A DNA stretch of 64,000 nucleotides from Candidatus Heimdallarchaeum aukensis (GTDB lineage: Archaea > Asgardarchaeota > Heimdallarchaeia > Heimdallarchaeales > Heimdallarchaeaceae), in assembly GCA_021513695.1 (NCBI GenBank), contig CP084166.1:1568001-1632000 (forward strand). Direction: 5' to 3'. Below are positions 12,664 through 64,000 of the stretch, piece after piece. A program made the translations under genes and the position numbers. Numbering within the stretch: position 1 is the stretch's first letter; each line of letters opens with the position of its first letter. The notes beneath the pieces are model-generated. The model saw only the letters and a list, made by a program, of their open reading frames with translations. It was not told the DNA's origin and made no database searches.

Positions 12664-13022
12664 GGTAATTACTTTATCAAAATAAATTTAAGAATTTGGA
12701 TAGACGGATGAAATTTAAGCAAAGAAAAATTGTACGATAATCGAAGGTTCTGTAAAAATAAAAAATAGGGTATTACACCCTACTTCTTTCTAACTGGTAG
12801 AGGAACTAATGAAGAAACTCTATGCTTATAATCTTTATATGCGCTGTATTTAGAAAGCAGTCTATTCTCCATAAGATACTTTTTTACGTAAAAAACTAAA
12901 TTTTTAGTTTGTGGAGTTATTAGACTAATAACAACCAGAAACACATTTGCATTAATAAAGAATATACAATATTATGGGTGTCACAACTTTTCCGCTGTCT
13001 TTATATATTCAATTATCATTTA

Positions 13023-19467: not shown

Positions 19468-20127
19468 ATGGGTATGAAAAACTGGTTATTTGGAACCAAA
19501 CGCAAGGATGATGCTGAAGCTTTAGCTACACTCAAAGCTCAGATCAATCGATATGAGCACGAGTCCCGCAATTTAGAACGTCAAGCTGATGAACAAAAAT
19601 CTTTAGCTGCTAAGATGTTAAAGTCGGGTAATAAAGCTGGAGCTAAACAAGCTCTTAAGCGTCGAGCTATTTATATGAAACGTTTAAATCAGGTTCAAAA
19701 TATGCTAATGAACCTTCAGAGTCAGATTGATAGTATTCAAACTGCAACCTCTACTGTTGAAACAGTAAAGGCAATGGAGTTAGGTACGAAAGTTGTCAAG
19801 ACGAAGATGCAAGAAGTTGATGTAGAGAAAACTGAACGTGTAATGGATGAAGTTATGAGTCAACGTGATGAAATTGAAATGATGACAGAAGCTTTATCTG
19901 ATACTGCACTAAGTGAGAGCATTTTAGATTACGAAGATGATGTCGCAATTGATGATCAACTTGCTCAATTAGAAGCCGAGATGAATCTTGGTAAAACAGA
20001 AGAATTACCAGATCTTTCAGATCTTCCTTCAACTCCATCAGAAAAACCGACTGAAAAAGAAGAAGATACTTCTGACCTTGAAGCCGAATTAGCTTCTCTT
20101 AAGAAGAAGTTAAGTGATGACAAATAA
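19468..20127 (+). CDS. ESCRT-III, Vps20/32/60-like (Snf7 family)
   Basis: 219 aa. AKQALKRRAIYMKRLNQ Snf7-like helix, acidic C-terminus with a terminal MIM-like DLEAELASLKKKL. Confidence 0.8.
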   Translation: MGMKNWLFGTKRKDDAEALATLKAQINRYEHESRNLERQADEQKSLAAKMLKSGNKAGAKQALKRRAIYMKRLNQVQNMLMNLQSQIDSIQTATSTVETVKAMELGTKVVKTKMQEVDVEKTERVMDEVMSQRDEIEMMTEALSDTALSESILDYEDDVAIDDQLAQLEAEMNLGKTEELPDLSDLPSTPSEKPTEKEEDTSDLEAELASLKKKLSDDK

Positions 20128-20254
20128 TAATAATCAAATTCTTTTTTCAATTCTTTTTTTCATCATTTTAGAAACGAACAGTTTTTTAACGATAATGATG
20201 TTACTAGTTTAGTAATTCAATTAATAGGATTATTCAGTTAGAGAGGTTAAAGAA

Positions 20255-21400
20255 TTGAGCGCGCAAGGACTGATTGAACACGCACGTAAATTTGCAAAAA
20301 AAGCTTATGAACTTGATAAGGCAAAACAATACAATGAGGCAATACCACTTTATCTCGACGCTGCAGAAGCTCTAATGAAAGCAATAAAATTTGAAAGAAA
20401 TCCACAAGTGGGAAAGACATTAAAGAAAAAAGCAGAGATGTACATTGAACGAGCAAAAGATCTAAAAGAAATTATTGAGAAAAAAGCTGAAAAGGGGGCA
20501 GAAACAGGGTCAGACGAAGAATCTGATAAATTAGAAGGAGCAATTAGCGATATCATAGTTACAGAAAAGCCATCAGTTACTTTGGATGATATTGCAGGAC
20601 TAGAAGAAGCAAAACGGAATCTTCGAGAAGCAATAGTGTTACCTCTTGTAAGACCAGACTTATTTAGTGGTGCAAGAAGACCATGGAAAGGGATTTTACT
20701 TTTTGGCCCCCCAGGATGTGGAAAAACTCTTTTAGCAAAAGCAACAGCTGCAGAAGTAGAAGCTACGTTTTTTAATGTTAGTGCGTCCGCGGTTATATCC
20801 AAATGGTTAGGAGAATCTGAAAAATTAGTTAATACATTATTTAAAATTGCTCGTGAAAGGCAACCAAGTATAATTTTCATAGATGAAGTAGATGCTCTTA
20901 CCGGAGCACGTGGTGGCGAGCATGATGCTATGCGCAGAGTTAAAACTGAATTATTAACTTCTATGGATGGTTTATCTAGCTCTGCTCAAGATCGTCTTGT
21001 AGTTATTGGGGCTACTAACCTTCCTGAGTCTATTGATGGAGCTTTTCGCCGTCGTTTTGAGCGTCGTATTTACATTAAGCTTCCAGATTTTGAAGCGCGT
21101 AAAGCTATCTTTCAACTAAATGTCAAAGGAGTGGACTTAGCTCCCGATGTTGATTTTGAATCTTTAGCAGAGATTACAGAAGGTTATTCTGGAGCAGATA
21201 TTGCTATGGTTTGTCGCGATGCTATTATGACTCCTATTCGTGAACTTGATTTATCAGGAGACATTCATGACCCCAATATTAAAGCCAGACCAGTTACACA
21301 AAAAGATTTTCTTGAGTCTATTCAGTCAGTTAATCCTTCTGTAAGTGCAGAAGAAATCGAGAAATATGAGAAATGGAATGAAGAATTTGGTTCAGCGTAA
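20255..21400 (+). CDS. vps4: Vps4 AAA+ ATPase (MIT domain + AAA module)
   Basis: N-terminal MIT three-helix bundle (AKKAYELDKAKQYNEAIPLYLDAAEALMKA). Walker A GILLFGPPGCGKTLLAKA, Walker B IIFIDEVDAL, second region of homology, and C-terminal Vps4 helix. Confidence 0.95.
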   Translation: MSAQGLIEHARKFAKKAYELDKAKQYNEAIPLYLDAAEALMKAIKFERNPQVGKTLKKKAEMYIERAKDLKEIIEKKAEKGAETGSDEESDKLEGAISDIIVTEKPSVTLDDIAGLEEAKRNLREAIVLPLVRPDLFSGARRPWKGILLFGPPGCGKTLLAKATAAEVEATFFNVSASAVISKWLGESEKLVNTLFKIARERQPSIIFIDEVDALTGARGGEHDAMRRVKTELLTSMDGLSSSAQDRLVVIGATNLPESIDGAFRRRFERRIYIKLPDFEARKAIFQLNVKGVDLAPDVDFESLAEITEGYSGADIAMVCRDAIMTPIRELDLSGDIHDPNIKARPVTQKDFLESIQSVNPSVSAEEIEKYEKWNEEFGSA

Positions 21401-21412
21401 AAGGGTGTTTTT

Positions 21413-21705
21413 ATGATTTACCTTTTTACGTAAGTTTTTCGCACTCGGTCTTTCAAGGGAGAAAACAGGAGTTTCATCACTTGATAACTCAACCACAACA
21501 TACAATGAAAGGAAACGTGGTTAAGACAGACGTCATACACGAATCGTGGGAATCATAAAGAAGGAAAAGAAAAAAGTAAGAAAGGAGAAAAGAAAGGAGG
21601 TTATCTCCTTCTTTATTCTACTTTCTTTTCTTTCCTTCACTCCACGAGAGACGAAAAAACAAACAAATAATCCTCTAACAAGAGAGAATGTAAGTTTATA
21701 TTTTC
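21413..21705 (-). ncRNA. Candidate TnpB omega-RNA (reRNA) scaffold / right-end region
   Basis: Non-coding segment between the tnpB stop and the element terminus. Blocks are conserved with the paralog (e.g. acatacaatgaa...gacagacRtcatacacgaatcgtgggaatcataaagaag and ttccttcactccacgagagac) despite indels elsewhere. Confidence 0.4.
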
Positions 21706-21707
21706 AT

Positions 21708-23161
21708 CTACTGGGGCTGCAACCAATGGCTGAGCCCTTGGCAAACAGTGAAATGAGTGAGACTAAATTTACGACCAGTGAGTAGATCAGTAATAGTTGT
21801 TGCACGGGGGCGGAAAAGAGAACTAAGGAGCAGACGAGCGATATTCATTGCTCCTGTTAGATCAGAGTGGAAGGTGTAATTGCAAGAGGGACAATAAACT
21901 AACCCTCTAACGGGGCGGGTAACTTTTTTTCCGCAACGGGCACAGTGAGATGATGTTCCTCTTTCCTCTATCGTCAGAATTCGGTGAGAGGGAAAACCTC
22001 TAAGTATTAGTGCACGACGGATAAAAGAAAGAACAAGAGCATAGTTCCACTGGTGAAGTTTTCTTCGTGACTTGCGATTAGTTACTCCCTTATTTTTTTC
22101 TCGTCGAATGTATTTAGGATAACCTATAACAACGAAAAGATTATAGATCCGAGCATAAACCTCTATTGTCCACACGATAGCACTTACAAATTGATTGATA
22201 TACGCTCGTCTGACGTTTCTATACCTCCGACGGAGACGTTTGAGAAAACGGTAAACTTGGTGTTTTTTACCCGATTGGTCGTTTAAAGCTGCTTTCCTCT
22301 GAAGACGGGAAAGTTTGAGTTTATATCGATGATTAACTTTATTCCACTGTTTGGTATACTAGAACTTTATTTCTTTACTTGTTACCTTCTTTTTCGGGGT
22401 CAGTAGCACTTCTACCGCAGGAATGTTTATCCCTAGATCTATTCCCAGCACAGCTGGGGGAAGAAAAGAAGAGTCAGAAGAAAGATTATCTCCCTGAAGG
22501 AAAGAAGAAGGAAGAACTTTTGAATGAAAATATATCCACCATTCACGTGTAGAACGTTTGTATCTTATTTCTAAACTTTTTACTCTTTCTTTAATTCTTT
22601 TTGATGAAACTCGCTCATCTCTAAAGGTAACCACAATCGCTGATGAAAACGTGTTTTTCTTTTCCACCTATCTAACGAGTCTCGTATTCCTACCCACCAA
22701 CGAGAAAGAGTGTTATTCTTATCTTTTGGTAGATGGACGAGGATGAACCTTTTTTTATTAATTAATTGTCTTCTTGCTCTCTTTCTTGGAGGACGAGTAT
22801 TGTTAGGTCTATATCCTTGCTCATATAGTTGCACAGCTATATCTCTACATTCTTGAAACTCATCGTGAGAACAATAGGGAAACATTTTCTTCATATCGTG
22901 AGGAACAGTCGTTCTTCTTTCTTCCTCTTTTTTTACTCTCGAGGTCGTTAATGTCAATTCGTCTAATTTTCCTTTATGTACTTTTATTTTCCCTTCTTTT
23001 GCTTTAATACCTATTTTTTTTCTGTTATGGTGTATAATTCTCACATACTTTTCTATTATTCTAGTATCTCTCCCCGTTATTCTCCTTAACTTTTCTTTTT
23101 TTCTCGTCGTCAATACTTCATTCTTCACTCTCACCTTTAACGTTTTGACGACGTCCTCCAT
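21708..23161 (-). pseudogene. tnpB: tnpB pseudogene (frameshifted; fragments 22580-23161, 22359-22667, 21708-22175)
   Basis: Three ORF fragments in different frames together cover the 484-aa intact paralog, from the N-terminus MEDVVKTLKVRVKNEV... to the C-terminus ...HCARCGKKV...CPSCNYTFHSDLTGAMNIA. At least two frameshifts were seen. Confidence 0.75.
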
Positions 23162-23240
23162 CCTTTTTTTCTCCTCTTATTTTACTCTCTCTTTTTTTCT
23201 ATTTTTTTCTCTTCTTTTACTTCTTCTCTTCCTCATTATA

Positions 23241-23260
23241 CTTTTTTTCCCTATAAAAAG
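23241..23260 (-). promoter_or_regulatory. Candidate TATA box for tnpB inside the left end (reads TTTTTATAGGG on the coding strand)
   Basis: The motif ctttttttccctataaaaag is conserved in both paralogous elements (also 34681-34698). A related tttttttcctatataaa lies upstream of the third tnpB (63559-63578). Confidence 0.3.
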
Positions 23261-23329
23261 TCCTTTCTTTTCTTTTTTTCTCATTATTCTTCCTCAATTT
23301 TTATATAAAGTTATGTAAAATAGTAAATC

Positions 23330-24130
23330 ATGGCTACAATGGAAAAACAAAAAGATAATGAATTTGAGCAAATTGATCTTGAAAAATTGAAAGAAGAAAA
23401 GAAAATATCAGAAGATAAGCTTAAGCTTATTGAAGCCAGTATTAAGGGATTAAAAGTTTCAGAAGAAGAACTGAAGTCCACGAAACCTATTGTTAGAGAA
23501 GAAGCAAGATTAGAACTAACAGAAGACACAAAGACGAAGCTAATTAAAGAATTTGAGCAAAGTTTACCTGATTGGGTTAACAAGCCTTGGATGTATGTCA
23601 CCCCAAAAAAGGCAAATCAAGTTGAGTCTTGGTTAGACAGTTGGTCATCAGTCATGCTTGATTATACAAAGAAATTTGTTATTCATATTGTTAATGTCAA
23701 TTCTCTTAGAGAAACTTATCCTTTTTGTAATAAGAAAATAAGAAAAGAACTTACCATCGATCAAATTCGTGATATCATCGATTTTCTTGAAACAAAGGGT
23801 TTTGCTCTTTGGATAAATGATAGGACAAAATTCTTTGAGAAACTTTTTGCAAAGATACTTGGAAAACCTTTAACAAAAAAGATCCGTGCAAAGATAGAAT
23901 GGAAAACAAAAGAAGAATTTGCTGAAGATTTACTTAAATGGATGATTGAAACCGGTAGAGTAGTTGAAGTTCACTCTTTATATGATTTAACAAAATATGA
24001 ACAACCCTGGTCTTCTTTACCTTCAGATGATTTAATCCATGTATGCAATTTACTCGTAGAAAAAGGTTCTGCTAGATGGTTAAATAGAGAAAGAACTATA
24101 ATTTCCTTTGAAGCAACAAAGGTATTCTAA
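23330..24130 (+). CDS. ESCRT-II Vps25-like protein (tandem winged helix) with an N-terminal charged coiled-coil extension
   Basis: PFCNKKIRKELTIDQIRDIIDFLETKGFALWINDRTKFFEKLF matches the Vps25 WH1 pattern (LF.N..I.R.L....I..IL..L...G.AEW). The second WH is GRVVEVHSLYDL...LIHVCNLLVEKGSARWLN. The annotated ATG overlaps the IS terminus; the real start may be the next Met. Confidence 0.65.
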   Translation: MATMEKQKDNEFEQIDLEKLKEEKKISEDKLKLIEASIKGLKVSEEELKSTKPIVREEARLELTEDTKTKLIKEFEQSLPDWVNKPWMYVTPKKANQVESWLDSWSSVMLDYTKKFVIHIVNVNSLRETYPFCNKKIRKELTIDQIRDIIDFLETKGFALWINDRTKFFEKLFAKILGKPLTKKIRAKIEWKTKEEFAEDLLKWMIETGRVVEVHSLYDLTKYEQPWSSLPSDDLIHVCNLLVEKGSARWLNRERTIISFEATKVF

Positions 24131-32912: not shown

Positions 32913-33171
32913 ATGATTTACTTTTTTCCGTAAGTTTTTCGCACTCGGTCTTTCAAGAGAGAAAAACAATAAAATAGCTTAATCGCTTGGTAACTCAACC
33001 TAAACATACAATGAATGGGAGTGGTTGAGACAGACATCATACACGAATCGTGGGAATCATAAAGAAGAAAGGAAGAAAAAAGTAAAACCTTTTTTCTTTT
33101 TTCCTTCACTCCACGAGAGACAAAAAAGAAAGACTAACTCTAACACAAGAGGATAGAATTAGTTTCTTTTC
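32913..33171 (-). ncRNA. Candidate TnpB omega-RNA scaffold / right-end region
   Basis: Conserved with 21413-21705 (see there). Lies 3' of the tnpB stop and runs to the element terminus. Confidence 0.4.
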
Positions 33172-33173
33172 GT

Positions 33174-34628
33174 CTACTGGGGCTGCAACCAATGGCTGAG
33201 CCCTCGGCAAACAGTGAAATGAGTGAGACTGAATTTCTGACCAGTGAGGTAATCAGTAATGGTGTTACATCGAGGACGGAAAAGATATCCAAGGAACTTA
33301 CGAGCGATATTCATTCCCCTTGTTAGATCAGAATGAAAAGTGTAGTTACAGGAAGAACAATGAACTAACCCTCTAACGGGACGGGAAACTTTCCTCCCGC
33401 AACGAGCACAGTGAGAAGATGTCCCTCTTTCCTCTATTGTTAATATTCGGTGAGATTCAAAGCCTCGAAGTATAAGTGCCCGACGGAGAAGAGAGAGAAC
33501 AAGAGAAAAATTCCACTGATGAAGTTTTCTGCGAAACTTACGATTACTTTTTTCTTTTTCTTTTCCTTCTCGAACATGTTTGGGGTAACCTACAACAACG
33601 AAAAGGTCATACACTTGTGCATAACTCTCTATCGTCTGCACAACATCGCTTATAAATTGGTGAATATACGCGCGTTTAACGTTTCTATACCTCCGACGAA
33701 GAAGACCAAGAAAACGGTAAACTTGGTGCTTTTTACCTAACTGGTCGTTTAAAGCTGCTTTCCTCTGAAGACGGGAAAGTTTGAGTTTATATCTATGATT
33801 GATTCTATTCCACTGTTTAGTATACCAGAATTTTATCTCTTTTTTTGTTAACTTCTTTTTAGGAGTCAGTAACACTCCTGCAGCAGGAATGTTTATCCCT
33901 AGATCTATTCCCAGCACAGCTGGGGGAAGAGAAGAAGAATTATCTCCTTGACTTGTGAGATAAAAGGAAGAAGGAGGAAGAACTTTTAATTGGAAATACA
34001 CCCACCATTCACGTGTAGAACGTTTGTATCTTAGTTCTAGACTTTTCACCCTCCCTTTCTTTAACTCTTTCTGGTGAAAATCGCTCATCTCTAAAGGTAA
34101 CCACAACTTCTGATGATAAGGTGTCTTTCTCTTCCAGGTATCTAACGAGTCTCTTATTCCTACCCACCAACGAGTAAGTGTATTATTCTTCTCTTTTGGT
34201 AGATGGACAAGAATGAACCTTTTTCCATTAATTAATTGCCTTCTTGCTCTCTTTATTGGAGGACGAGTAGGACGGGGTCTATACCCTTGTTCATATAATT
34301 GTACAGCTATATCTCTACACTCTTGGAATTCATTGTGAGAACAATAGGGAAACATTTTCTTCAAGTCGTGAGGAACAGTCTTTCTCCTCTCTTCTTCTTT
34401 TACTCTTGAAGTAGTCAGTGTCAACTCGTCTAATTTTCCTCTATGTACTCTTATTTTCCCTTTTTTTGTTCTTATACTTATTTTTCTTCTGTTGTGGTGT
34501 ATAATTCTCACATATTTTTCTATTATTCTCGTGTCTCTCCCCGTTATTCTCCTTAATCTTTCCTTTTTTCTCGTCGTCAATACCTCATTCTTTATTCTCA
34601 CTTTTAATGTTTTGACGACGTCCTCCAT
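33174..34628 (-). CDS. tnpB: TnpB (RuvC-like RNA-guided nuclease family, IS200/IS605 OrfB)
   Basis: RuvC-I LGIDLG, C-terminal zinc finger HCARCGRKV...CSSCNYTF and RuvC-III HSDLTRGMNIA. The canonical RuvC-II glutamate is not evident: the sequence reads LFVVVGYPK where the third TnpB in the window has AIVIEEIS. Confidence 0.85.
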   Translation of the reverse strand: MEDVVKTLKVRIKNEVLTTRKKERLRRITGRDTRIIEKYVRIIHHNRRKISIRTKKGKIRVHRGKLDELTLTTSRVKEEERRKTVPHDLKKMFPYCSHNEFQECRDIAVQLYEQGYRPRPTRPPIKRARRQLINGKRFILVHLPKEKNNTLTRWWVGIRDSLDTWKRKTPYHQKLWLPLEMSDFHQKELKKGRVKSLELRYKRSTREWWVYFQLKVLPPSSFYLTSQGDNSSSLPPAVLGIDLGINIPAAGVLLTPKKKLTKKEIKFWYTKQWNRINHRYKLKLSRLQRKAALNDQLGKKHQVYRFLGLLRRRYRNVKRAYIHQFISDVVQTIESYAQVYDLFVVVGYPKHVREGKEKEKSNRKFRRKLHQWNFSLVLSLLRRALILRGFESHRILTIEERGTSSHCARCGRKVSRPVRGLVHCSSCNYTFHSDLTRGMNIARKFLGYLFRPRCNTITDYLTGQKFSLTHFTVCRGLSHWLQPQ

Positions 34629-34947
34629 CTTTCTTTCCTCTTTTCTTATTCTAAACTTTTTTCTTCTCCTTTAATTATACTTTTTTTCCCTATAAAAATT
34701 CCTCACTTTTTCTTCTCTCCCTCCCTCTTCCTTCCTTCTTTCCTTTCTTTTTTCGTTGCACTCTTCCTCAATTTTTATAAATTTACGTAAAAAAGTAAGT
34801 CATTTATTATGCTTTTCTTTAAAGTTTTTACAGTAAGTGCTGAATGTTTCTATTTCATTTATCCCTGAAAGAGGACAATAGTATAAAAAAGTGTAAAAAA
34901 CAATAATTAAGAAAATATTTATAGTTTAACAAAAATAAAAAACATCA

Positions 34948-60936: not shown

Positions 60937-62172
60937 TTAAGCTCCAAACTTTTCTACCAAGTGCAACTCATTTAATAACACTTTCATTAGATGTTTTCCT
61001 TTAATTCTTCCTAATCCACCATTATACGCATAACGTTCTCCAAAATACTTAACATTATCTTTTACGCAAGTTGGAGAATAAACAATTAGTGGAACTGGAT
61101 CAGCAGAGTGGTCTTTAAAGGAACAAGGAGTACTATGATCCCCAGAAATCATTACAACTAATTCTTCATCAAAGTTTTCAGGAAGAAATCTGTAAAGCTC
61201 TTTGTCAACTTTTTCAATGAATTCGACTTTTCCGTTATAATTTCCATCGTGCCCATAATTATCTGTTCCCTTAAAATGTAAAAATATGAAATCATGAGTT
61301 TTTAGAAGGTTAAAAGCAGTTTCAGCTTTTAAACGTACATCAGTGTTTGTTCCTCCTGTCATTCCATCTTTTTCAACTATTTCCATTCCGAGCATTCGAG
61401 CAACACCTTTGTAAAGACCTCCACCCGCTACACATGCTGTTTGCAACCCATATTCTTTTTCAAAGTTTGGCAATTTAGGGACTCTTCCAGCACCTCTGAT
61501 TAGCAAGTAATTTGCAGGTAATTTACCGGCTTCAATTCTTTGTTCATTTAGGGGGGAATGAGACAAAATTTCGTGAGATTTCCTTGCAAACTCAGATAAC
61601 ACCCTAGCAGTTTTTTGTGCTGATTCTGAATCATCTAAAGCTTTAAACGAATAAGGAGCTTTTCCTTCTACTTTAGGATCATTTGCTGAAACTTTATCTG
61701 ATAGATTTTCACCACGAAGAACTAGCGCAGCCCTATGTTCAGTACCTGCTTTCATGAGAAATTGAACATCTTCTATCTTCATTCCATTTAATTGCTTAAT
61801 GAACTCTTCTGTTCCTTCTTTTATACGCCCAGCACGACGATCAATAATAATTCCTTTTTCATCCATCGTGGCAAAATTCACTCTAAAAGCAATATCTCCC
61901 TCTTTTACAGTCAAACCAACACCTGAAGCTTCAAAAGGTCCGCGTCCTGTATAATACTGAAAAGGATCAACTCCAAATAGTGCAAGATGAGCAGTATCAC
62001 TTCCTGGCGTCTGTCCAGTTTCAATTACGTCCATGATTCCAGTTACACCCAGTTCAGCAAACTTATCCATATTTGGTGTTTTTGCATACTCTAAGGGAGT
62101 TTTACCGTCTAATTCAGGAATTGGACGATCACCTAATCCATCAAGGATAATAAATAATAATTTTCCAGTCAT
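60937..62172 (-). CDS. apgM: 2,3-bisphosphoglycerate-independent phosphoglycerate mutase, archaeal type
   Basis: N-terminus [36 protein letters not shown] and C-terminus ...ISGDHSTPC...DHSADPVP, typical of archaeal cofactor-independent PGM. Confidence 0.9.
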
Positions 62173-62246
62173 TAATCAACTTGATTTTTGTACAAAAATA
62201 AATTTTGTGCAAGAATCTTGCTCTCGGAAAGCACTAAAAGAAACTA

Positions 62247-63545
62247 TCACGAAGGAGAGTTTAGATTAGGCGAACCGGTCATAGAGCCAGAGGAGAGAGT
62301 TGATAAACCCTCGACCACGGAAACTGGAAAAAAGAACTTTTTCCGCTCACGTGGGACAGGAAAATAAGAAAAAAAGGAAGAAGAGAGAGGGAGAGGAAGA
62401 GAACCAAAAAAGAGAAGAGAAAGGTTGCGAGAGGCGTTGCGGTCAGAGTGAACTTCAAAACCACAAGAAACGCAACGAAAAAGGTCACGAGTGACACGGG
62501 AGGAAGGAGAAACGTGACCGCAACGAGAGCAACGTTGACTGGTATAATGAGGGGGGACAGGAAGAACAGGAATATGCTTTTCTTCAGCAAGAGAGGTCAA
62601 GAAAGAGAGGAAAAAGCGATAAGACCAGCGGTTGAGAGAGCGACGAATACGTTCTCTTCCTCTAAAATTCTTTTTAGTCCATTTTTTTCTTATTTTACTA
62701 ATTTCTTCAATTACTATCGCAGAGCGTGTAACTACTGCTAAATCTACAATCTCGTGAGCTATTTGCTCACATCGGGTTTTGTTATAATTTTTTTCTTTAT
62801 TTTTCAATCTTTTTAACGCACGCCGTGCTTTTTCACTTCCTTTATCAGCATACGATTGTAGCTTTCTTCTTCTTTCATTAAACTTATGTTGTTTCCAGGC
62901 AAGATCTTTTCCGAGGTAACGTTCAATTAGAGTAAAAGAGGGATGATTAAGTGTTATTGCGGCAGCTATCTTTCTACCTACGTCTACTCCTATCGTTCCT
63001 TCTACTTGTTGAGGAGGAAAAAGGTTAAGTTCTTTACGTAAAATTATGTGCTCTACCCACTTTCTTTCCCGTTTAAAGACTTTACAACTATGCTCTTTCC
63101 ATCCTTCTCTGCGGTATGCTTCTACTCTTCTCCATCCTCCATCTAGTTTGATAGGTATAGCTATCCTTTCTTTCATCGGAGAAATAGCTAAAACAGGGTT
63201 CCCTCTCTCTGTTTCTTTTATTCCTCCACTCCTGGGAAAGTTGAACTCCAACGGTAAATTATCGAACTTTTTCACTTTCCTTGCCGCATAAACTCTTCTC
63301 TGTACCGCTTCTTGCACTTGACTGTGTAACTTCACATATTTGAACCTCTTATATACTAAATGATGGAACTCTTTTCCTGATTTCGCTTTTTCCTTGAACA
63401 CTATTATTTTATTTGCCATCTCTGTCGCTTTTTTCTGTGCTCTCTGCATGTATGCTCTTTTTCTTCTACTCGGGAGAATATTCACTTTTACTGTTTTTTC
63501 TTTCCACTTCCTTTTCTTTCCTTTTCTTCTCCCTTTCGTTTTCAT
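62247..63545 (-). CDS. tnpB: TnpB (second, unrelated family; IS200/IS605 OrfB-type RuvC-like nuclease)
   Basis: RuvC-I IGVDVGRK, RuvC-II AIVIEEIS, zinc finger CSRCGHVS...CVSCGFEV, RuvC-III HSDRNASRN. The low-complexity C-terminal tail (62247-62430) may be non-coding omega-RNA sequence read through in frame. Confidence 0.8.
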   Translation of the reverse strand: MKTKGRRKGKKRKWKEKTVKVNILPSRRKRAYMQRAQKKATEMANKIIVFKEKAKSGKEFHHLVYKRFKYVKLHSQVQEAVQRRVYAARKVKKFDNLPLEFNFPRSGGIKETERGNPVLAISPMKERIAIPIKLDGGWRRVEAYRREGWKEHSCKVFKRERKWVEHIILRKELNLFPPQQVEGTIGVDVGRKIAAAITLNHPSFTLIERYLGKDLAWKQHKFNERRRKLQSYADKGSEKARRALKRLKNKEKNYNKTRCEQIAHEIVDLAVVTRSAIVIEEISKIRKKWTKKNFRGRERIRRSLNRWSYRFFLSFLTSLAEEKHIPVLPVPPHYTSQRCSRCGHVSPSSRVTRDLFRCVSCGFEVHSDRNASRNLSLLFFGSLPLPLSSSFFSYFPVPRERKKFFFPVSVVEGLSTLSSGSMTGSPNLNSPS

Positions 63546-64000
63546 TCCTTCTTCTTACTTTTTTTTCCTATATAAACCCCTCTCCTCTCTCTTTCCTTTT
63601 CTTTTCTTTCCTCTTTTTTTACAAAAAACTTGTTCATGAGAAAAATTAGTGAATACAAATAAATGTTGCTTTAAATCAATAATTCTTTTTGAAACTACTT
63701 TATTTTTCTTATTAAGAATTTAAAAACGGAGAATCTGCTCTGTTTAATATTAAGCTGAAAAATTTTGCTTGGTGTTAAATCAGATTATTCTAAAAGAAAT
63801 AAAATGAAAGAACACAAATAGCTATCGAAACAGATGAGATAAAGAAATCTTTTATTCTAAATCTCCTACTGATGCTATATTTTCGTTTGATGGAGGGGTT
63901 ATATCCTTTTATAACTAAAGTTTCGGCAAATAGGATACTATTATTGATAGCTCTAATAAATACTGTTTTCAACATTTTTTTTAGGATGGAAAATTGATTT

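Follow-up and report, generated by a model that had tools for sequence, protein, structure and literature searches.

What becomes of a gene cluster when a mobile element settles between two of its members, how recently the element arrived and how it moves are the questions raised by the endosomal sorting complexes required for transport (ESCRT) locus of Candidatus Heimdallarchaeum aukensis. We analyzed a 64,000-nucleotide stretch of its genome (contig CP084166.1, positions 1,568,001 to 1,632,000; hereafter the window, to which coordinates refer), in which a 1,919-bp element, copy 1 (21413-23331), is sandwiched by the stop codon of vps4 and the start codon of a vps25-like gene. An earlier note on this DNA had described a decayed TnpB element that was old and tolerated. 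We consider it likely that copy 1 is instead a non-autonomous insertion sequence (IS) of recent, strain-specific arrival, bounded by terminal inverted repeats (TIRs), with a RuvC-II-rearranged tnpB as its sole gene and a guide-RNA region, which docked on the AT of the vps25-like ATG.

The limits of copy 1 can be read to the base. The vps4 stop codon TAA (21398-21400) is followed by 12 nt, AAGGGTGTTTTT (21401-21412), and then by ATGATTTAC, which begins at 21413; at the other end GTAAATCAT occupies 23323-23331, and its final two bases are also the A and T of the ATG (23330-23332) that opens a 266-aa open reading frame (ORF). Both placements agree with the earlier note, which had the element begin 12 bp after the vps4 stop and overlap the vps25-like ATG with its other terminus. 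The tnpB of copy 1 lies on the minus strand, antisense to the ESCRT genes, and its TIR arms of 25 nt each, one at the end downstream of tnpB (right end, RE; 21413-21437) and one at the end upstream of it (left end, LE; 23307-23331), are 84% complementary. A second copy, copy 2 (32913-34803, minus strand), is likewise strain-specific; its 25-nt TIRs show 88% complementarity and enclose an intact tnpB of 484 aa (33174-34628, minus strand). Homology between the two begins and ends precisely at the ATGATTTAC and GTAA(A/G)TCAT termini and amounts to ~80.5% identity overall and 84% within the ORF. Because identity is only ~80% and the flanking genes differ, copy 2 is not an assembly duplicate; the second copy that had been noted at 32.9-34.8 kb is genuine. 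The complete Ca. Heimdallarchaeum endolithica genome contains fourteen additional copies, each with ...AGTAAATCAT at its end, and this end is invariant in the 16-copy set formed by these and copies 1 and 2. The element boundaries rest on three independent lines: the homology to copy 2, the TIR arms and the empty sites.

Contigs without the element were found via exact-protein-sequence look-ups. Copy 1 is absent from three Joint Genome Institute (JGI) metagenome contigs (L005-L007) and from the Ca. H. endolithica locus (L001-L004). At the empty site L005 has TAA-AAGGTGTTTTT-ATG, followed by the codon GCG, and L001 has TAA-AGAGGTGATTAT-ATG; the filled allele reads ...GTGTTTTT-AT-GATTTAC...GTAAATC-AT-GGCT... 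A 39.5-kb contig, L046, which derives from the same JGI contig as L005, is also without copy 2, with GGAC-AT-TTATT where the window has GGAC-ATGATTTAC...GTAAGTCAT-TTATT. Both empty sites have a single AT and both filled sites have an AT at each end, which for copy 1 puts the left copy of a 2-bp direct repeat at 21413-21414 and the right copy at 23330-23331, on the first two bases of the start codon. Alignment of the window with L005 gives 97.2-97.5% identity for the left flank and 99.45% for the right. Because a sister-strain contig is without both copies, both insertions postdate the divergence of very close strains, and on the evidence of these alignments the insertion is a recent strain-level polymorphism. 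The comparison with orthologous loci that the earlier note had proposed as a check thus shows that relatives lack the insertion and that the 1.9-kb sequence is no conserved part of the locus, and it overturns the note's view of the insertion as old. The filled allele itself was independently assembled in a Logan contig from run SRR15988954 (L008/L045), with a flank that is 100% identical, and a contig from run SRR15988958 breaks at the start of copy 2.

The same alignment revealed an uneven distribution of substitutions around the insertion point. Relative to L005, 26 of them (~4%) are packed between -512 and +142 (window 20900-21412 and 23332-23475), and over the adjoining 2 kb on the left and 1.3 kb on the right the sequences diverge by less than 0.5%. 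The window shares the Ca. H. endolithica state at 15 of the 26 sites. One explanation would be a tract brought in by recombination along with one of the two alleles, either the filled or the empty. It may also be a coincidence, since comparable divergence affects about one third of the aligned region.

The condition of tnpB bears on the age of the insertion from another side. The copy 1 pseudogene (21708-23161, minus strand), delimited by tblastn of the copy 2 protein and a codon walk, ends at its native stop (21708-21710). When compared with copy 2, it has a 4-nt deletion near 22587, which shifts the frame after codons 1 to ~191 (22587-23161), an in-frame nonsense change, TGG>TAG, at 22359-22361, and an insertion of 3 nt that keeps the frame and does no harm; the motifs of RuvC-I (GIDLG) and the Zn finger and the HSDL motif remain readable. 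As read from its codons, the copy 1 tnpB is dead. The description of a mobile TnpB element with a disabled tnpB is therefore sound, with the "at least two frameshifts" of the earlier note corrected to one frameshift and one nonsense change. Its decay is real in that tnpB is disabled, but light, being limited to two lesions, with the termini and the 3′ RNA region intact. The ratio of non-synonymous to synonymous change (omega) is ~0.26 on the copy 1 branch against ~0.11 on the others (three-taxon branch lengths from Nei-Gojobori distances), which points to some relaxed constraint and no long neutral decay. Since the repaired copy 1 protein is no more than 83.5% identical to any known homologue, its source lineage is unsampled.

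Taken together, the disabled tnpB, the raised omega, the lack of an intact homologue more than 83.5% identical to copy 1 and the displacement of the upstream Shine-Dalgarno (SD) and operon context of vps25 are what would be expected of an old, long-tolerated insertion that decayed in place and replaced the native 5′ end or promoter of vps25. We nevertheless regard such a history as highly unlikely: sister strains with an identical Vps25 and flanks 97-99.5% identical are without either copy, the lesions number only two in an element whose TIRs and RNA region are intact, and the coding 5′ end is untouched. Branch rates give an estimated neutral phase of ~5% for copy 1, of the same order as the strain divergence, so that tnpB may have died either before or after the insertion. 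Disabled copies are common in this 484-aa tnpB family, because several Ca. H. endolithica copies are interrupted too: in that genome (CP084167) the first ORF of tnpB measures 36, 39, 116 and 383 aa in L013, L017, L019 and L020, respectively.

The intact protein of copy 2 shows what kind of nuclease the family encodes. It matches the Pfam family PF07282 (Cas12f1-like_TNB) with 27.5 bits against a cutoff of 26.3, and a profile of 25 homologues matches Cas12f and TnpB chains in the PDB (E 1e-19). The AlphaFold model (mean confidence, pLDDT, 81.6) gives full-length matches to AsCas12f (E 2e-13, TM 0.59-0.66), ISDra2 TnpB (8h1j) and Fanzor2 (9b0l). A RuvC-like split nuclease fold with a Zn finger thus extends across the full length, which places the protein in the TnpB/Cas12f-like superfamily. 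A special affinity to Fanzor was considered and rejected, as the best folds are Cas12f and TnpB, with Fanzor1 (8gkh) far lower in the list. Among homologues from the Heimdall and Thor lineages that are 32-94% identical to copy 2, D242 (GIDLG), D434 (HSDL/NADLN) and the CxxC...CxxC zinc finger are invariant. The position of the canonical RuvC-II Glu is an invariant Gly347 (VVVGYP), so that the canonical D-E-D triad is absent; an alternative Glu, E400, stands directly before the Zn finger and is invariant across the homologues. RuvC-II-rearranged (RIIr) TnpBs in which this Glu is Gly have been described and are considered catalytically active (Altae-Tran et al. 2023, PMC10691335), and E400 is a candidate for the alternative RuvC-II Glu in an arrangement equal to theirs. 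The likeness to RIIr branches such as RIIr-5 (Glu to Gly) is one of motifs, comprising the invariant Gly, the invariant E400 before the Zn finger and a NADLN-type RuvC-III in most of the family, together with an archaeal (Heimdall, Thor) distribution; that study does not describe the ends of the Heimdallarchaeum family.

From the last tnpB codons to RE (21413-21760 in copy 1, minus strand), the 16 copies share invariant blocks with variable stems between them, and the region past the tnpB stop measures ~260 nt in copy 2 and ~295 nt in copy 1. RNAalifold predicts 68 pairs from the 16 copies, with 98.6% of cells paired and 33 cells with compensatory double changes, a number that none of 500 shuffles reached; sliding the partners by 1-3 columns lowers pairing to 52% or less. 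The copy 1 region folded as a single sequence gives z = -4.9. A search of Rfam matched no family to the 3′ RNA region and returned only sub-threshold miRNA-like hairpin matches. Copy 1 alone carries a hairpin extension of ~35 nt (~21590-21624) in a variable stem. In position and character this predicted RNA is like a TnpB omega RNA scaffold, and its region is intact in copy 1. If copy 1 behaves as other TnpB systems do, its guide would be the stretch immediately beyond the element end, 5′-AAAAACACCCUUUUACGC, antisense to the last vps4 codons, and the guide region could be loaded by the TnpB of intact copies such as copy 2. When the predicted guide AAAAACACCCTTTTACGC (window 21389-21412) is set against positions 5976-5998 of L005, the empty allele AAAAACACC-TTTTATGC differs by a 1-nt indel at position 10 as well as by mismatches, and the sister-strain empty allele would probably not be cut by it. 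A truncated relic in a marine-sediment-type metagenome contig (L028, 2090-2273) has no tnpB and is reduced to ~185 nt of RNA region from the tnpB-downstream end.

The ends and targets of the copies suggest how the family is moved. In element orientation, the base before LE is C, and the flank NCAT, in 13 of 14 copies, and the base after RE is G in 13 of 16 copies (12/14 among those of Ca. H. endolithica). The preferred target would then resemble the palindrome C-AT-G, a sequence that also forms the center of the element's end-to-end junction (..AATC-AT-GATT..). In L023, a homologue with only 43% identity, the TIRs are 31 nt long and quite different in sequence, yet the ends are again C|ATG...CAT|G. 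No transposase lies inside any copy, and because the spacer between LE and the tnpB ATG is only ~170 nt, there is no room in the copies for a Y1 TnpA; one acting in trans may be encoded elsewhere in the genome. A serine-recombinase TnpA was likewise not seen in or near the copies examined. Subterminal hairpins were not found at a conserved position, and, folded as single-stranded DNA, six of eight end segments are no more stable than shuffled sequence. In the survey of Altae-Tran et al. (PMC10691335), TIRs are found for all DDE-associated TnpBs, asymmetric ends for those associated with Y1 transposases and serine recombinases, and solo TnpBs are mobilised in trans. The TIRs, the lack of IS200/IS605 features and this published pattern together favor mobilisation in trans by a symmetric double-strand enzyme, and the element is probably moved in this way: the transposase would be supplied by another locus, and the TIRs, the 2-bp repeat and the C-AT-G-like target suggest a DDE or site-specific recombinase mechanism.

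Targeting of start codons as a general rule was considered and rejected. Two of the 16 copies abut the ATG of a long ORF, namely copy 1 and L019 (an ORF of 264 aa), an excess that is not significant (P ~0.16); the expectation comes from a rough composition estimate that puts start codons at ~4-5% of CATG sites and allows for the loss of intragenic insertions by selection.

With the solo-TnpB elements of the IS1341 group of IS200/IS605 the family shares tnpB as the only gene, a structured RNA that runs to the element end ~260-295 nt past the stop, a multicopy and strain-polymorphic occurrence and the lack of a transposase in cis. It differs from them in its 25-31-nt TIRs, in the 2-bp AT repeat at both ends, in the lack of conserved subterminal hairpins, in a score below the guided_TnpB cutoff and in the replacement of the RuvC-II Glu by Gly; moreover, the asymmetric ends without inverted repeats that define IS200/IS605 are not those of the copy 1 family. 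Its resemblance to the TnpBs carried by symmetric-ended DDE-type transposons (DDE-1 to DDE-6, IS630-linked; PMC10691335) lies in the TIRs, in what can be read as a short duplication, in a target like a palindrome and in a mobilisation that probably occurs in trans. The TIRs are accompanied by an AT repeat, readable as a short target duplication and checked against two independent empty sites. In contrast to the DDE type, no DDE gene was found in or near the copies, and the repeat is an AT within C-AT-G, not the TA of IS630/Tc1-mariner. The symmetric ends are also unlike the asymmetric ones of IS607, to which the 2-bp identity of end and target, compatible with a crossover dinucleotide, offers a point of contact. 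Inverted repeats of 20-30 bp, duplications of 2-3 bp and palindromic hot spots are features of the DDE-type IS30 family, which makes it a lead for the mobilising partner.

The host genes on either side form a recognizable ESCRT locus. The 381-aa vps4 (20255-21400, plus strand, TTG start) encodes the Pfam domains MIT, AAA, AAA_lid_3 and Vps4_C, and the intact vps25-like gene (23330-24130, plus strand, 266 aa) matches the ESCRT-II family PF05871 (E 7e-16). Pfam matches further identified two Snf7 genes upstream of vps4, ubiquitin-like and ThiF/E1-like genes downstream of the vps25-like gene on the same strand, and EAP30 and UEV-Vps28 genes close by on the opposite strand. With snf7, snf7, vps4 and vps25-like adjacent and ubiquitin, E1-like, EAP30 and Vps28 genes nearby, the locus is an Asgard ESCRT cluster. 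In eight related contigs (L001-L007, L046) vps4 and vps25 are 11-12 nt apart, and when called genes are compared with these contigs the cluster is broken only in the window strain and in L008/L045. The separation of ESCRT-III/Vps4 from ESCRT-II by the insertion within an otherwise contiguous cluster, as the earlier note had it, is thus borne out. The window vps4 product differs by 4 aa from that of the empty-site allele; the Vps25 protein is identical to that of L005-L007, and its gene shows 4 synonymous and 0 non-synonymous differences from L005. A second structural change affects the same operon of the window strain: at ~20150-20160, between snf7-2 (which ends at 20127) and vps4 (which starts at 20255), it lacks ~113 bp of intergenic sequence that both L005-L007 and Ca. 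H. endolithica have, and the deletion is bounded by two TTCTTTTTTT direct repeats.

For the vps25-like gene the insertion has a loss and a possible gain. The native spacer AAGGGTGTTTTT (21401-21412, plus strand), with its GGTG SD-like motif, is now 1.9 kb from the vps25 ATG; the gene is thereby deprived of the GGTG that stood 5 nt ahead of its ATG and of its coupling to vps4 across 11-12 nt. Because the AT of the start codon is present at both element ends, the ATG and the whole ORF are regenerated; in landing on that AT the element would itself have rebuilt them. The suggestion that the native 5′ end or promoter had been replaced accordingly stands for the upstream context of GGTG and vps4 coupling and falls for the gene itself, which has kept its ATG and all 266 codons. 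Inside LE, a palindromic TATA box, TTTATATAAA (23300-23309, plus strand), starts 30 nt upstream of the vps25 ATG. Promoter-motif statistics from 47 crude gene calls in the window provide a measure for this spacing: of eight matches to a strict TATA motif, six start 29-32 nt ahead of the ATG, among them that of vps25 itself, and the chance of a strict match in a given 5-nt window is ~0.4%. This spacing suggests that leaderless transcripts are used, and it makes TTTATATAAA a candidate outward promoter, inferred from motif and position, for a leaderless vps25 mRNA. SD-like motifs, for their part, cluster 9 to 15 nt upstream of the ATG. The window thus has two classes of gene start, one with a TATA ~30 nt upstream, which is leaderless-like, and one with GGTG or GAGG 9 to 15 nt upstream, which fits genes within operons.

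In the model that we propose, vps25, and probably the following genes too, would be transcribed from the TATA box in LE as a leaderless mRNA, and vps4 transcripts would probably stop at RE, where three T5 tracts lie at 21408-21438 in the vps4-proximal end of the element. Copy 2 has a similar TATA box 28 nt from its end. A separate TATA-like box, TTTTTATAGGG (23251-23262, minus strand), read from the sequence upstream of tnpB, is probably the element's own tnpB promoter, and a similar motif precedes the tnpB of copy 2 and the second tnpB of the window. IS elements with outward promoters for neighboring genes are general in bacteria and archaea, and copy 1 shares with them a promoter-like element in the terminal 30 nt that faces the host gene; it differs in that the predicted mRNA is leaderless and begins with a start codon regenerated by the insertion itself.

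It is also conceivable that the insertion silences the vps25-like gene and those downstream of it, as a polar effect or an early gene loss, with the ORF intact merely for want of time. The loss of the SD motif and of the vps4 coupling would act in this direction, as would the T5 tracts at the vps4-proximal end; with so recent an insertion the absence of decay says little, and the four synonymous differences may predate it. We nonetheless think silencing improbable, given a consensus TATA at the distance seen in other TATA-bearing genes of the window and the persistence of the lineage, as witnessed by the filled allele in SRR15988954 and the contig of SRR15988958 that breaks at the start of copy 2.

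Several observations weigh against the account of a TnpB element moved in trans that left vps25 with a promoter. The outward promoter, the leaderless mRNA and the termination of vps4 transcripts are all matters that we infer from sequence motifs; TTTATATAAA, being palindromic, may serve only the element, and the Ca. H. endolithica copies are without a strict TATA at this position. The 484-aa protein scores 74.7 bits against the NCBIfam model NF040570 (guided_TnpB), below its cutoff of 100. No transposase stands beside the three distant homologues L023, L024 and L026, and a TIR scan of the metagenome contigs gave 13 matches, six of them the ends of the same tnpB element and the rest unrelated or the relic L028, with no partner transposase. 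The G after RE is not universal, since five metagenome copies, L028, L029, L034, L036 and L033, have C, C, C, C and T, respectively, which may reflect a subfamily-specific target preference. Finally, the AT "duplication" has a second reading in which no true duplication took place: an element with TCAT as its own terminus would have inserted 3′ of NCAT in the manner of IS605.

This last point opens the way to a different mobilisation, in which copy 1 is a classical IS200/IS605 element of the IS1341 type, moved as single-stranded DNA by a Y1 TnpA and inserted 3′ of NCAT as its target-adjacent motif (TAM), the second AT being simply the end of the TCAT terminus. Such a mode fits both empty sites equally well and agrees with the NCAT before LE in 13/14 copies; furthermore, solo TnpB elements are usually placed in this family, and source names include 'IS605 OrfB family transposase'. 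We judge it unlikely for this element, as TIRs of 25-31 nt are kept even between members only 43% identical, the flank preference in Ca. H. endolithica is a symmetric C...G, stable subterminal hairpins are not conserved (six of eight ends being no better than shuffles), no Y1 gene was seen near any copy, and Y1-associated TnpBs have asymmetric ends (PMC10691335).

A bolder proposal goes beyond trans mobilisation by a known enzyme type. The Heimdall/Thor TnpB family, whose members range down to 32% identity to copy 2 and are solo in every case examined, might constitute a separate kind of TnpB transposon, TIR-bounded, with an AT-in-palindrome target that mimics its own junction and a mechanism new to TnpB. 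An IS30-like or recombinase partner acting via a circle, or even movement without a dedicated transposase, could then be involved. We hold this to be quite unlikely. If it were true, the combination of an ATG-containing target with a TATA 30 nt inside the ends could let such elements settle on start codons with the host gene still expressed as a leaderless mRNA, and insertions into essential operons such as ESCRT would become survivable.

Returning to the recent insertion of a trans-mobilised element, we find it a biologically ordinary IS insertion, with an element architecture that is a variant outside the IS200/IS605 and IS607 descriptions. For ESCRT biology it has little import, as a recent insertion in one strain uncouples the ESCRT-III/Vps4 genes from those for ESCRT-II and ubiquitin. 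The natural, isogenic-like empty strains in the same enrichments do, on the other hand, provide a ready-made test of vps4-vps25 co-transcription in an Asgard archaeon. For mobile-element biology the locus documents a family of solo TnpBs from the closest archaeal relatives of eukaryotes, for which two empty sites have been verified; its TIRs and AT repeat in place of IS605/IS607-type ends favor a mover other than the usual Y1 route, and it yields a candidate TAM (NCAT) and a predicted guide scaffold for a RuvC-II-rearranged TnpB. The paper describing the Heimdallarchaeum genomes (PMC8813620) reports transposase families of up to 27 copies and makes no mention of TnpB or of the locus analyzed here, and a 2026 survey of archaeal IS elements (PMC13343696) contains nothing specific to the copy 1 element.

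At 12871-12904 an intergenic 34-bp palindrome, ATAAGATACTTTTTTACGTAAAAAACTAAATTTT, matches two element termini fused at an ACGT center at 28 of 34 positions, and it could be a miniature remnant of such an element or just a T6-ACGT-A6 terminator-like palindrome. The second tnpB element of the window (~62173-63637; tnpB 62247-63545, minus strand) is unrelated to copies 1 and 2. Its 432-aa TnpB has a canonical VIEE RuvC-II, passes the guided_TnpB model with 129.8 bits and is 25% identical to the 484-aa family. The element carries an imperfect TIR of 24 nt (62175-62198 and 63614-63637), a TATA box lies 31 nt ahead of its tnpB ATG, and its tnpB-downstream end is 2 nt from the ATG of a co-directional 411-aa gene (60937-62172).

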